Shown here piece by piece: positions 48,187 through 64,000 of a stretch of 64,000 nt of DNA. The DNA lies in the NCBI GenBank assembly GCA_964399055.1, contig CAYNPJ010000001.1:1255347-1319346 (forward strand), in the 5' to 3' direction. Numbering within the stretch: the stretch's first letter is position 1; every line of letters starts with the position of its first letter. A program made the position numbers and the translations under genes. This stretch comes from an uncultured Ignavibacteria bacterium (GTDB lineage Bacteria > Zixibacteria > MSB-5A5 > DSPP01 > RBG-1). The notes under the pieces were generated by a model. That model did no database searches, had not been told where the DNA came from, and worked only from the letters and a program-made list of their open reading frames with translations.

Positions 48187-48495
48187 TTACTTCTTCACCC
48201 CCTTCCTCACCAGCGCCGCCTTGGCCGCTCTCAAAGCCACTTCCCTGTCCACTCCGGTAATCTCCATAATCTCTTCTACGGCCTGGTCAATCCAGGAGGC
48301 CCAGCCGGAGTTGGGATATTTTAGAATAAGAGAAGAGGTAACTTCATCGGCTATGAGCAAAATATGCTCGGCCAACTTCTTTCTCTTCTCTGTGGCCAAA
48401 AAAGGGACTAAGTACTTCTGCGCCAGCCATCCCAAGACTAAAATTCCCAGAGAGCCTAGGCTGGGAAATATACTGCTGGAAATGAAATCAAACAT
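48187..48495 (-). CDS. Holin-like protein (LL-H-like, single N-terminal TM)
   Basis: TM segment then amphipathic helices and basic C-terminus; adjacent to endolysin; RBS GGAGG. Confidence 0.6.
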   Translation of the reverse strand: MFDFISSSIFPSLGSLGILVLGWLAQKYLVPFLATEKRKKLAEHILLIADEVTSSLILKYPNSGWASWIDQAVEEIMEITGVDREVALRAAKAALVRKGVKK

Positions 48496-48525
48496 AATTC
48501 CTCCATTTAGTTTTCAGTTAAACGT

Positions 48526-48924
48526 TTACTCGCGCAATGGCTCCACTGACAGATGAATATGAAACTTATCCCCCTGTCCGTGGAGCAAGACTGCAGGCAG
48601 CCTATCTCTCCGGGGAAAATACTTTTGTACGAATGACTGGATATTTTCTAATTCATACAGACTGAAGTAATTCCGGTGCGCCCGAATATCGACTGCCCGG
48701 CACTGCGGTAGACAGAAATGAGCTGAGCGCTTCTTTTCTCCATAAATAGTAAATTGCTCCTCTTCAGTCCTCCACACACAGGTGATAATCAGGTCCTTGT
48801 CGAACATTTTTCCACACCACAGTGCCAGCTCCGAGGCAGCCGCCCTTATTCTGGGGTCGGTCCTCCCCAGGTCGTAAAACTCTTCTTTTAACTTTGGCGT
48901 TTTAAACTTAATCATCGTTGTCAA
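48526..48924 (-). CDS. Peptidase M15-like endolysin
   Basis: IT...RT.EEQ, SAH......AVDIR, HIHLS zinc peptidase motifs; start may be the ATG at 48915. Confidence 0.75.
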   Translation of the reverse strand: MTTMIKFKTPKLKEEFYDLGRTDPRIRAAASELALWCGKMFDKDLIITCVWRTEEEQFTIYGEKKRSAHFCLPQCRAVDIRAHRNYFSLYELENIQSFVQKYFPRRDRLPAVLLHGQGDKFHIHLSVEPLRE

Positions 48925-48942
48925 TTCAATTTTACCAAACTT

Positions 48943-49018
48943 ACCTCTCCCCTTCCCTCCCCTAAGAGGGGAGGGTGTTAAGTCCCCTCTCCTTTAAGGG
49001 GAGGGACAGGGAGGGGTT
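48943..49018. repeat. Family B element (two internal hairpins)
   Basis: ACCTCTCC..CCCTCCCCTAAGAGGGGAGGG..CCCTCTCCTTTAAGGGGAGGG..GGAGGGGT. Confidence 0.75.
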
Positions 49019-49044
49019 AGTTCGCTTATCCACAATCCATAATA

Positions 49045-50490
49045 TTAAAACGTCAGCTCCCAACTCGTCTGATTAGGCACTTCAGTTTCCAGACGCAATA
49101 TCGAACCGGATGGCACATGGATGTTGAACCGATATTTTGAATCCGAGGGAGTTAAAACTGTATTCGGGAACAGGTCCAGATACCAGTAGCCGTTATTATC
49201 CGTAACCGTGGTTTTGTAGTAGGGTGAAATCACTACTGACAGATATTTCAGCGGCACAGTTTTGTTCAAGGCCCCCACTTTAGCTCCCACCACTGGCAGA
49301 TTATTGATATCCTTGACATAGCCGTACACCCGGCACAGGGCTGGCGAAGGCGGGGTTCCAGGGTCAAAGGCTGAGCCGTAGTAGGTAACACTTGTGCTGC
49401 CGTTGACTATGACCGATTCAGGTACAGTGAAGACGTATCCGGGCTTGAATAATCTGACTTTATAAATGGCATCGTTCAGTGCAAAGACCGCCTCACCCAG
49501 ACTGTTGGTGGTCAAGAGACCTTCAGTAGCTGTCTGGCTCTGATTTAAGACCTGAACCTGAACTCCATTGAGAACACTGCTGTCTGCGGAGGACTTTGCA
49601 GTGATAGTAACCTGATTGCTTCCAGTCCCGGCTCCGGAAGTCAGGGTCCTGGTCGACCAGGTCCAGACATGCGCGGCAACTGTATCCGGGTCAGAGGCTC
49701 CGGCATTGACCGCCAAGACCTTGGGGACTGTGTCTGCTAAAGTTATCGCATTCTGGTAGGACCAAACGTACTTAGCCACGGTATCCGGTTTGGTGTAATT
49801 TCCCCAGTTGAAGATGTTAAAAGTCTTGTCTGAGGCATCAGCCGAGATTTTCCCTCCGATGTTAGTGGTATCTGTCAGAGTGCGGACTGCATTGTCCCAC
49901 TGATTGTCATCAATGGCCGAGATATCCTTGTCCAATCTTTTTCCGAAACTGCCGGCAGCAGTATGGCCGGACTGCAGCTCATCCCAGATGTCGTCTACTC
50001 CGGTCGAAGAGAGCCGGTAGCCGGTTTTGTCGAGATTGGCAGATAAATTGCCGGTCGTATCAGTGGAAACAATGCGAACTTCATTGTAACTTCCGCCGCA
50101 AGACCAGCTGTAAGTTTTAAAGAGTCCGAAAACTTTTTTGGAGTTAATGTAATCCCAGCCACGAATTTCGGCATAGTAAATTCCCTGAGTGTTCGAGCCG
50201 TCTGAGGCTTTTACCCTGAAAACGTAATGACCTGTTCCTCTTTGCAGTGAAGATAAAGTTGGGGTAGTCCCTGAATGATAAATAGTGGAATCAACCAGAA
50301 CCGGACTGGCTCCAGTCGGTTGCCTGAATCTCAAAACAATGGCAGTATCAGCGGCAATCGGTGCCAGACTAATGGTTGAATCTACGCAGGTCCAGGAAAA
50401 GGAGACCGAATCACCTGTGGCATACCAGCCTAAAAATTGCGCTGAAGCTGGAACTGTAAAAAACAAAAATGCGAGTATAAGTTTCTTCAT
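49045..50490 (-). CDS. Virion-type protein with Sec signal peptide and C-terminal carboxypeptidase-regulatory-like domains
   Basis: MKKLILAFLFFTVPASA signal; D.IWDELQSGH..AGSFG and VW.W.TRTLT motifs; C.VYG.V.D....PV.GA.V transthyretin-like domain. Confidence 0.7.
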   Translation of the reverse strand: MKKLILAFLFFTVPASAQFLGWYATGDSVSFSWTCVDSTISLAPIAADTAIVLRFRQPTGASPVLVDSTIYHSGTTPTLSSLQRGTGHYVFRVKASDGSNTQGIYYAEIRGWDYINSKKVFGLFKTYSWSCGGSYNEVRIVSTDTTGNLSANLDKTGYRLSSTGVDDIWDELQSGHTAAGSFGKRLDKDISAIDDNQWDNAVRTLTDTTNIGGKISADASDKTFNIFNWGNYTKPDTVAKYVWSYQNAITLADTVPKVLAVNAGASDPDTVAAHVWTWSTRTLTSGAGTGSNQVTITAKSSADSSVLNGVQVQVLNQSQTATEGLLTTNSLGEAVFALNDAIYKVRLFKPGYVFTVPESVIVNGSTSVTYYGSAFDPGTPPSPALCRVYGYVKDINNLPVVGAKVGALNKTVPLKYLSVVISPYYKTTVTDNNGYWYLDLFPNTVLTPSDSKYRFNIHVPSGSILRLETEVPNQTSWELTF

Positions 50491-50513
50491 TAAATGGTGA
50501 GCTTGTCGAATCA

Positions 50514-62866: not shown

Positions 62867-62901
62867 GACTCTTAGTCAGATGAAACTAATCCTACGACTG
62901 C

Positions 62902-63108
62902 TCATACGTCACAGCCAATCAGCGGGCAGACCACACAGCGACCTACCTGGCGGCATACGCCATCGCAACATTTAATCTTGGCGCAGGTGCAGTTCTCGCA
63001 GTAGGTGTAGCAGTTGCCTCCGGCTGAAGCCGGGCTGGTCAAGACCCCGACCACAAAGGAACTGGCCAAGGCCAGAATCAGAATACTGGCGACCAATGTC
63101 TTTTTCAT
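62902..63108 (-). CDS. Secreted cysteine-rich peptide (29-aa signal + 39-aa mature peptide with 10 Cys)
   Basis: RBS TAAGGAGGTGA; Sec signal ending ASA; mature GGNCYTYCENCTCAKIKCCDGVCRQVGRCVVCPLIGCDV. Confidence 0.85.
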   Translation of the reverse strand: MKKTLVASILILALASSFVVGVLTSPASAGGNCYTYCENCTCAKIKCCDGVCRQVGRCVVCPLIGCDV

Positions 63109-63178
63109 CTTCTCACCTCCTTATGATTTGATGGTTATATTTTTTATAACGTCACTCTGTTATTGTCAGACCCTCAAA

Positions 63179-63206
63179 ATTAAATGAGTCCGGCTCAGCG
63201 TGTCAA
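63179..63206 (-). promoter_or_regulatory. Sigma70 promoter of the Cys-rich peptide gene
   Basis: Minus strand TTGACA-16nt-TTTAAT. Confidence 0.6.
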
Positions 63207-63231
63207 GTGATTTTTAAGTTTCTCCCAGGCT

Positions 63232-63536
63232 GTCACTGCGAGCGAAGCGTGGCAGTCCCGATGAATCGATGCTGCGTAAATAATCAACAGGATTCCCACG
63301 TCGTTCCCGATAAAAATCGGGACTCTCCTCTGAATGACTGCACCTTACAATTGACCCCTGCCTAACTCTCCCCTTAAAGGAGAGGGAACATAACTCTCTC
63401 CGCTCGTTTATGCTGAGCCTGTCGAACCATAGGGGAGAGCTGCAGAGGAGTAAGTTGTTATTGTCATTCTGAGCTATAGCGAAGAATCTGTCTTTCCAAA
63501 AGCAGATTCTTCGTCGCTATCTCTCCTCAGGATGAC
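63232..63536. repeat. Cluster of family A (63232-63338, 63463-63536) and family B (about 63353-63452) elements
   Basis: GTCACTGCGAGCGAAGCGTGGCAGTCCC..GGATTCCCACG..GAATGAC; CTCTCCCCTTAAAGGAGAG; GTCATTCTGAG..GAAGAATCTG..CAGATTCTTCG..CTCAGGATGAC. Confidence 0.8.
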
Positions 63537-63539
63537 AGT

Positions 63540-64000
63540 TTAGGAGAAACTGGCAATTTGCGGGGACAGAACTAGAGAATTATCAACACTGCTTCGCAAG
63601 GGCCACAAAGCCAACGCCAGAGCCATGGCTCCGTCTAAGGACTTACCCTTGTCCCAACTCAACTCACGCAACTCATCTTGCAGCGACCATATTTCTCCGT
63701 TCTCGGTAAACTGCTCTATCAAAGGATAGGCCATTAGATTTTTCTGGTGCATCAGCTGGAGATTAGAAATCAATTCCAGACGTGACTTTTCGCCAAACTG
63801 GAAACCAATCGGTCTAATGTCAGCCAGTTCAGACATTATCACATCCCCTACGCCGGTGGAGTCTATCACCACTAGGCCGGGATAGAGCTTTTTCTTCTGC
63901 CGGATAATTTCCACCTGCTCTAACCAGTCTTTTTGAAATCTTTCGAAAGAGACGACCTGATACGGTCTGACCGAAATGTCTATGGTTATGCCTACAGTCC
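63540..64000 (-). CDS. Terminase large subunit, C-terminal nuclease domain (5' part beyond the window)
   Basis: Frame open to the window edge (TVGITIDISVRPYQVVSFERF...); IDSTGVGD and DGAMALALA motifs of RNase H-like terminase nuclease. Confidence 0.85.
   Translation of the reverse strand, partial: TVGITIDISVRPYQVVSFERFQKDWLEQVEIIRQKKKLYPGLVVIDSTGVGDVIMSELADIRPIGFQFGEKSRLELISNLQLMHQKNLMAYPLIEQFTENGEIWSLQDELRELSWDKGKSLDGAMALALALWPLRSSVDNSLVLSPQIASFS

Follow-up and report, generated by a model that had tools for sequence, protein, structure and literature searches.

RcGTA-type gene transfer agents (GTAs) are found in the Alphaproteobacteria Rhodobacter, Caulobacter and Dinoroseobacter, and to our knowledge only a handful of independently domesticated GTAs are known, mostly from Alphaproteobacteria. 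Capsid-forming phage-inducible chromosomal islands (cf-PICIs) are mobile, carry integrase, regulator and replication genes, and are patchily distributed. Here we analyse a 64-kb stretch of DNA from contig CAYNPJ010000001.1 (hereafter the window), which at 48187-64000 carries a row of phage-type genes, all on the minus strand. An earlier reading of these letters (hereafter the sequence-only reading) had proposed a domesticated, GTA-like or tailless phage head module made of co-oriented intact genes, and every gene listed is indeed an intact minus-strand open reading frame (ORF). These genes very probably make up most of a domesticated particle-gene cluster, that is, a resident, vertically inherited, phage-derived cluster of 13-17 kb in Zixibacteria. 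As a whole, the statement that the cluster would be a vertically inherited, host-maintained GTA-like 'viriform' of independent origin is one towards which we lean with some reserve, while the chances that its job is DNA transfer between cells seem evenly balanced.

The nearest functional analogue, which sets a precedent for GTAs that look podovirus-like or tailless, is FpGTA of Faecalibacterium prausnitzii, whose ~40-nm particles without visible tail, containing ~9 kb of host DNA, have been documented, with proteomics, in a genus-level system of the Firmicutes that has a candidate small terminase subunit (TerS) and a second operon with baseplate, fibre and receptor-binding protein genes (PMC12946183). 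Compared by description, not by sequence, both systems consist of a chromosomal operon for the large terminase subunit (TerL), portal, scaffold and capsid, without replication or integration genes and conserved over the host clade, and in both lysis genes would be part of the system; FpGTA particles are probably podovirus-like. They differ in that particles are shown for FpGTA and genes alone here, and in that the Zixibacteria cluster is phylum-wide, has no recognised TerS or fibre operon, and includes genes for exported proteins.

With RcGTA, the Zixibacteria cluster shares a size of ~15 kb, vertical inheritance over a large clade, purifying selection, the lack of integrase and replication genes, and a capsid protein that is among the best conserved components. 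However, RcGTA has a siphovirus tail (tube, tape measure, distal tail, hub and megatron), whereas the Zixibacteria cluster is without tube and tape measure. The RcGTA order is TerS-TerL-portal-protease-capsid, while the Zixibacteria cluster begins with the portal gene; moreover, its capsid matches PHROG 3922/PF25209 instead of the RcGTA-type profile, and a propeller gene follows the capsid gene. As the capsid family and gene order differ and no siphovirus tail module was found by Pfam and PHROG searches, the cluster is not a member of the RcGTA family and would therefore represent an independent domestication. Like cf-PICIs, it has its own capsid, portal and terminase genes and no recognised tail, together with a protease-like gene and genes for candidate connector proteins. 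A PICI or other satellite was nevertheless rejected, because no integrase, AlpA-type regulator or primase/replicase was found beside the cluster and the locus is fixed within clades. Similarly, an encapsulin nanocompartment was rejected because a conserved portal and TerL accompany the HK97-fold shell. A search of 8.3 million full texts retrieved no paper linking Zixibacteria or neighbouring phyla with GTAs or with this cluster, in line with the sequence-only reading, which knew of no GTA in this lineage.

Distribution, genomic position and selection

We detected 701 homologues of the capsid protein, the top 120 of which are all at least 62% identical, many of them on contigs of 0.1-0.8 Mb. 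Among GTDB contigs with one genome per species, a capsid relative is present in 227 species-level genomes, and the best 80 of these were mapped in detail by tblastn and clustering of ORF families. These 80 loci, almost all from Zixibacteria and some on closed chromosomes, share the order portal, TerL, [small antisense lipoprotein genes], protease-like gene, (a ~100-aa (amino acid) transmembrane (TM)/coiled-coil protein, f10, and a ~140-aa scaffold-like protein), decoration protein, capsid, p473, p278, p123, p82, [variable exported protein], p489, (peptidase) and one-TM protein. Compact versions span 12.5-14 kb. In a close relative of the window (L003; capsid 92% identical and same S8 neighbour), the complete layout covers 17.4 kb, from a host gene through portal, TerL, an insertion and the window's genes down to the one-TM gene, and then S8. 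The L003 cluster is bounded by host genes on both sides, one of which directly adjoins the portal gene. The sequence-only reading had asked what lies beyond 64 kb, and in L003 the answer is a portal gene and then a host gene; it had also suggested looking for the cluster at the same locus in related genomes, and the best 80 of the 227 do show a shared gene order and conserved positions between housekeeping genes. The left end in the window abuts a host protease gene, as had been noticed, namely an S8 subtilase.

Where neighbours of the mapped loci were identified (part of the flank ORFs having been profiled), the flanking genes encode RecG, RecN, LipA (lipoyl synthase), Lon, Rpe (ribulose-phosphate epimerase), CvpA, MscS, a CDP-alcohol phosphatidyltransferase, TPR proteins and proteins of the type IX secretion system (T9SS). 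Integrase or replication genes, which would have spoken for a mobile phage, were not found among the neighbour families tested around these loci, and the cluster itself showed no genes for integration, replication, lysogeny or a long tail. As in the GTA class, phage-like structural and packaging genes reside in the chromosome and, judged from L003 and the mapped flanks, genes for their own replication, integration or lysogeny appear to be absent. No tRNA gene is present within the window, the G+C content of the cluster is no different from that of the remaining window, and read depth in the source hot-spring metagenome is uniform over flank and cluster, at ~15x. Apparent 'joints' in that metagenome were considered as excision products and rejected, since the contigs concerned are short and bridge copies of dispersed repeats.

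Flank context follows the clades recognised from capsid identity, some contexts being shared between clades. For example, a TPR / T9SS-LipA-HD-GYP context is kept over four clades whose capsid sequences are more than 30% apart. In pairwise comparisons, the identity of the capsid goes together with that of flanking LipA (r = 0.86) and TPR (r = 0.94), which is the host-congruent pattern that the sequence-only reading had proposed to look for, and LipA is the less conserved of the two in those genome pairs (56% identity vs 68% for the capsid). Mean identities are 52% for TerL, 43% for the portal and, over the phylum, 64% for the decoration protein. Between the window and L003, synonymous divergence (dS) is saturated; the ratio of nonsynonymous to synonymous divergence (dN/dS, or omega) is 0.02-0.10 where it can be estimated, three genes being too saturated, and the flanking S8 proteins are 63% identical, against 92% for the capsids. 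In closer pairs, omega is 0.03-0.25 for cluster genes, the same range as for host genes, and dS of the cluster is similar to dS of the flank (0.23-0.43 vs 0.30 in the pair L062/L065; 0.6-1.4 vs 0.68-0.69 in the pair L060/L070). Omega thus lies far below 1 (0.02-0.25 overall). These data argue for vertical inheritance under purifying selection over a host clade. Synteny, host flanks, co-divergence and omega together support a domesticated rather than a mobile phage module, and they fit a head and packaging module that would have been domesticated before the Zixibacteria radiation and kept by selection.

Free phages are more distant relatives. Only five uncultured gut contigs match among GenBank phages, with capsids 33-35% identical. 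One of them, the 46.7-kb gut phage contig MT835508 (PHROG 3922 lineage, like its relatives), has adjacent homologues of the portal, protease-like and capsid genes, but lacks detectable relatives of the decoration, p473, p278, p123 and p489 families. In IMG/VR, one related contig is called viral and corresponds to a fragment of a typical cluster. In a library of 1.84 billion proteins reduced to 50% representatives, a single full-length representative stands for all Zixibacteria capsids, and the next full-length capsids are at most 40% identical to it. Homologues confined to free phages, an outcome that would have contradicted domestication, were thus not found, free-phage homologues being at most 33-40% identical. 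The head genes descend from a phage lineage that gut phage contigs still represent.

The nearest capsids outside Zixibacteria (38-40% identical) are found in similar head-only clusters of two unrelated low-GC genomes, L092 (8900-21065; 36% G+C) and L094 (250-15705; 30% G+C). Both clusters have portal, protease-like, decoration and capsid homologues and encode large exported proteins (855 and >1481 aa, respectively). Here too, host genes adjoin the cluster or lie between its genes. L092 additionally carries a p278 homologue and a TerS-like helix-turn-helix (HTH) gene, while in L094 purF and a gene for a CoA-binding protein lie antisense inside the cluster. The element family may therefore extend beyond Zixibacteria.

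Gene content of the cluster

The features of the window are listed in Table 1.

Table 1. Phage-type genes of the window, with flanking and inserted features (coordinates within the 64-kb window)
Feature	Position	Strand	Basis or remark
TerL, C-terminus	63540 to >64000	-	152 aa visible; gene continues past window end
Block inserted between TerL and protease genes	59000-63500 (~4.6 kb)		Mainly opposite-strand lipoprotein/outer-membrane protein (OMP)-like ORFs, and repeats
Cys-rich secreted peptide gene, 68 aa	62902-63108	-	Same strand as cluster
Opposite-strand lipoprotein/OMP-like ORFs in the insertion	59490-59681, 59693-59968, 60248-60937 (DUF3108-like), 60970-61530, ~61537-62000		
Palindromic repeats in intergenic spacers	47900-63410		Types A and B
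Prohead-protease-like and scaffold-like protein, 363 aa	57849-58940	-	phrog_16951
Decoration ('cement') protein, 139 aa	57263-57682	-	phrog_4588
Major capsid protein, 367 aa	55973-57076	-	phrog_3922
p473, beta-propeller and C-terminal beta-sandwich, 473 aa	54310-55731	-	AlphaFold2
p278, immunoglobulin (Ig)-like and helical bundle, 278 aa	53251-54087	-	AlphaFold2; Ig-like PHROG matches
p123, 123 aa	52785-53156	-	Conserved among relatives
p82, highly charged, helical, 82 aa	52383-52631	-	Conserved among relatives
p114, TM/coiled-coil/TM, lineage-specific, 114 aa	51973-52317	-	Sequence features; no known relatives
p516, exported, variable slot	50514-51986	-	PF06848; signal sequence
p489, exported, 489 aa	49045-50514	-	Sec signal peptide; CarboxypepD_reg
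Putative LAS/M15-type peptidase (endolysin candidate), 132 aa	48526-48924	-	Metal motif
Single-TM protein (holin candidate), 102 aa	48187-48495	-	Conserved family
S8 subtilase, left flank of cluster	45915-47864		Left neighbour of one-TM gene

The visible part of TerL reads in frame to its stop codon, covers the C-terminal nuclease domain and is 87% identical to the TerL of L003, the full 440 aa of which match phrog_2 (1.8e-29) and Terminase_6N. The L003 portal matches phrog_3753 (2.5e-31), and we infer from this close relative that the window's cluster has a portal gene as well, located outside the window. The decoration protein matches phrog_4588, a virion structural protein (2e-10), and the capsid matches phrog_3922, a major head protein (1.3e-65), with a weak match to PF25209. 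The head and packaging set is thus complete, with the portal read from relatives only and genes for TerL, a fused prohead-protease-like/scaffold protein, decoration protein and HK97-type capsid in the window. The clear ribosome-binding sites (RBSs) that had been noticed at several genes correspond to AGGAG-like motifs upstream of the decoration, capsid, p82 and one-TM genes.

The 363-aa protein, which matches phrog_16951 (1.8e-15), is a fusion of a prohead-protease-like N-terminal domain and a scaffold-like coiled-coil C-terminal domain. The N-terminal domain has an invariant His82 in PVLxGH and Ser135 in SxGF, as well as a zinc-type Cys/His cluster (C145/C148/C155/H157); its match to Peptidase_S78 is weak (E=0.016; 15.8 bits, below the cutoff of 21), and a profile search of the PDB gave no match for it. 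The C-terminal half clusters with a separate ~140-aa ORF that other genomes have ahead of the decoration gene. The protease-like gene of most other Zixibacteria encodes 600-790 aa (L010:6184-8436; L009, L011-L017, L024 and L028). These long forms join the same N-terminal domain to a DNA ligase of the ATP-dependent type (PF01068, 9.9e-29), and their C-terminus resembles LigD phosphoesterase (PDB 3p43/3p4h). The ligase keeps its catalytic KxDGxR motif in one subclade only, the domain being degenerate or deleted elsewhere, and the window's lineage has lost it. The outgroup L092 carries the protease-ligase fusion too, and we regard this fusion as ancestral in the family.

The sequence-only reading had listed a beta-propeller gene after the capsid gene, and the AlphaFold2 model of p473 (predicted local distance difference test score, pLDDT, of 94.9) bears this out, with a closed beta-propeller at about residues 1-330 followed by a C-terminal beta-sandwich. 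The protein is found by tblastn in 82 loci. Its Foldseek matches are lectins, sialidases and phage structural or fibre proteins, at the level generic for propellers, and it has weak matches to sialidase profiles; it is a candidate spike, nozzle or carbohydrate-binding protein. A specific 'nozzle' identity is unsupported by Foldseek (template-modelling score of 0.27 with chain 9efk_M of a podovirus portal-tail complex). In p278, the model (pLDDT 86.9) shows an N-terminal helix, two Ig-like sandwiches and a C-terminal three-helix bundle; Ig-like matches were obtained with phrog_807, phrog_18315 and phrog_20240, whereas a PDB profile search yielded nothing useful. The 'adaptor' of the sequence-only reading holds up insofar as this fold is compatible with a head-to-tail adaptor, for which p278 is a candidate, but Ig domains of phage tails or baseplates match its fold only weakly and its identity is unproven. 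The p123 protein, conserved in 64 loci (tblastn) and with no relative in PDB or PHROGs, is by its position a candidate neck or head-completion protein. The order of these two genes is swapped (473-123-278) in two capsid clades (L027, L029, L032-L034, L039, L041-L043, L048 and L058). Regarding p82, the N-terminus is basic and PDB profiles matched are those of designed repeat proteins only. The TerS-like gene of L092 led us to consider p82 as an HTH-less small terminase, which was rejected (hhalign probability of 0.2%).

Among the window proteins, Pfam and PHROG searches revealed no family of the tail tube, tape measure, sheath or baseplate, the only 'tail' match being an Ig-like domain, and the observation that such genes are missing between capsid and lysis genes is thus confirmed. 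The particle would be short-tailed or tailless, with p278, p123, p82 and p473 forming at most a neck or spike.

Two exported proteins are encoded towards the left end. One of them, p516 (listed as 516 aa, with a probable start at Met27, position 51986), has a lipoprotein-like hydrophobic N-terminal signal and a disaggregatase-related repeat (PF06848, 5.6e-10). The other, p489, has a Sec signal peptide, CarboxypepD_reg-type beta-sandwiches and a conserved C-terminal domain, and occurs in at least 51 loci, each time just ahead of the one-TM gene. As both carry Sec-type signal peptides, they are unlikely to be ordinary tail fibres assembled in the cytoplasm. They and their counterparts may act in release through envelope or matrix, or be surface partners. 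In every case, one or two proteins with Sec or lipoprotein signals occupy the slot between p82 and the one-TM gene (49045-51986 in the window; L008-L087). While p489 is kept, its upstream partner belongs to unrelated families depending on the clade (p516, f18, f25, f33 and f34), as if this capsid gene cluster had an exported component that is polymorphic.

The endolysin and holin of the sequence-only reading fared less well. The 132-aa protein shows an M15-like motif, SxH...C.A.D + HIH (LAS/M15-type H...D...HxH), which is invariant in the six members of its family (6/6), but this protein has no match in Pfam, PHROG or PDB, the 102-aa one-TM protein has none in Pfam or PHROGs, and the two labels are weak. 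The one-TM protein is conserved, with a helical C-terminal domain, and its family ends the cluster in at least 31 loci.

Possible function and alternative readings

If the cluster is indeed a GTA-like system, the host would turn it on in some cells. Procapsids would form on the portal around the scaffold domain and be matured by the protease domain, TerL would load headfuls of DNA, most likely host DNA, and p278 and p123 would seal the portal. The p473 propeller could then serve as a short spike, a nozzle or a sugar-binding adsorption device. The M15-like peptidase and the one-TM protein would free the particles, with p516 and p489 working outside the cytoplasm, either as a release aid via envelope or matrix or as surface recognition partners.

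Several points weigh against a GTA-like system. It is known here from genes, not from particles or packaged DNA. The portal side was read from L003 and not from the window's own 1.4-Mb contig: Logan contigs that match window proteins exactly are 1.4-2 kb long and break at repeats, and a scan of metagenome contigs with an exact 46-mer for sequence past 64 kb gave no match. No small terminase was identified in the cluster, there is no recognisable tail, and the roles of p473, p278 and p123 are assigned from fold and position only. The lysis genes are weakly supported, the peptidase candidate being found in few clades. Congruence was assessed against flanking genes only, and taxon labels of metagenome-assembled genomes are often inconsistent ('Ignavibacteria', 'Terriglobales'). 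Finally, some genomes have no TerL or portal match within 10 kb of the capsid gene, or a shortened cluster (L006, L017 and L019). Among these and L026, closed chromosome CP070839 included, we observed TerL or portal matches absent near the capsid gene, an inverted portal gene, or downstream genes gone. In these four lineages its genes may be dispersed to several loci, like those of RcGTA, or may be decaying.

Among the alternatives, the one that survives best is a domesticated capsid with a function other than transfer, for example to export or store DNA, to lyse cells at population level while the matrix is remodelled, or to deliver packaged enzymes. Such functions would suit a cluster that is conserved under purifying selection yet lacks recognisable adsorption machinery, as well as the exported proteins conserved in it and the ancestral fusion of a DNA ligase and LigD-phosphoesterase-like part to the protease domain. 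However, the conserved TerL and portal point to DNA packaging, and the window's lineage dropped the ligase while retaining everything else under selection; we therefore regard this reading as unlikely. A more elaborate version of the GTA-like reading, which we consider somewhat less likely still, makes use of the same fusion. In an ancient, previously undescribed tail-less GTA-like viriform family of Zixibacteria and at least two unrelated low-GC genomes (L092 and L094), the ancestral protease-ligase fusion would load a DNA-end-repair enzyme into the capsid for delivery with the DNA, and the exported proteins would be release factors or kin-specific recognition partners.

Alternatively, the cluster could encode a domesticated tailless capsid that is completed by the tails of infecting phages, as a chromosome-fixed counterpart of cf-PICIs. 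The host would make DNA-filled heads with adaptor proteins, to be used in transfer or to decoy phages. Heads with a packaging motor and candidate connectors, but without tail tube, tape measure or baseplate, are what this would look like, and the evidence for domestication fits it equally well. On the other hand, no PICI integrase, primase/replicase or AlpA-type regulator was found beside the cluster, near-universal vertical inheritance throughout the phylum would need compatible helper phages that are just as universal, and the conserved p473 propeller and the cluster's own lysis-type genes suggest autonomy, which makes completion by helper tails improbable.

An ordinary prophage, whether an active temperate short-tailed one with its integrase, replication and tail genes past the window end or a decaying cryptic remnant, is largely refuted and hardly credible any more: the window does end inside TerL, one IMG/VR contig is called viral and gut phage contigs have adjacent portal, protease-like and capsid homologues, but that contig is itself a cluster fragment, a host gene follows the portal in L003 despite its capsid being so close to the window's, host-type or housekeeping genes stand on both sides of the mapped loci wherever identified, the intact ORFs show omega of no more than 0.25 and the same dS as their host neighbours, coverage in the source metagenome shows no excess, and integrase or att sites, a repressor, a replication module and a complete tail, by which an intact temperate prophage would be recognised, were not found in the window, L003 or the mapped loci.

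If the GTA-like reading is true, the cluster would represent an independent GTA origin in an uncultured phylum of the Fibrobacteres-Chlorobi-Bacteroidetes (FCB) group, with a different architecture (the portal gene in front, a propeller and exported proteins but no tail tube, and a protease-ligase fusion in the ancestral form). Zixibacteria of sediments, soils and hot springs would then share, as a core trait under selection, DNA exchange by capsids or some other capsid-based function. The cluster genes also provide a marker set with which to reread 'viral' signals and host DNA in metagenomes of virus particles, as virus-prediction pipelines will take the cluster for a prophage and one fragment is already in IMG/VR.

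Spacer repeats, the TerL/protease junction and neighbouring genes

Palindromic repeats have invaded the spacers while the ORFs stayed intact, as the sequence-only reading had remarked. Type A is a CCTCCCC-loop-GGGGAGG hairpin and type B a ~100-nt (nucleotide) element with ends GTCATTGCGAG...CTCGCAATGAC; 15 of the 17 type-A hairpins and all 13 type-B ends (13/13) of the whole window lie within 47.9-63.4 kb. From the protease gene to p82, spacers measure 94-241 nt, compared with near-abutting genes in compact relatives. Both repeat families are common to L003 (1178-18756) and rare or absent in other clades, and Rfam has no family for them. A promoter scan revealed no excess, and a scan for terminator-like structures a modest one (30 vs 17.5 +/- 4.9 expected). 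The repeats could be either tolerated junk or transcriptional punctuation.

The TerL/protease junction is a hotspot of insertions and inversions (L008, L006, L026 and the window), with host-type genes interleaved, and the block inserted there in the window, whose genes are not of phage type, is probably not part of the particle machinery. It includes, just downstream of TerL, the gene for a 68-aa secreted peptide with a strong RBS and 12 Cys in its mature part; two copies of this gene are present at the same junction in L003.

Beyond the left flank of the cluster, three successive ORFs of ~590-628 aa occupy 39799-45665 on the minus strand. The one at 43893-45665, the only one of the three that was profiled, encodes a T9SS-sorted surface protein, and T9SS cargo genes adjoin the cluster in many other genomes too. 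Farther to the left, two tandem cobalamin riboswitches (Rfam RF00174; plus strand, 32898-33143 and 33735-33956, 55.7 and 58.1 bits) are located upstream of a 722-aa ORF (34004-36172).

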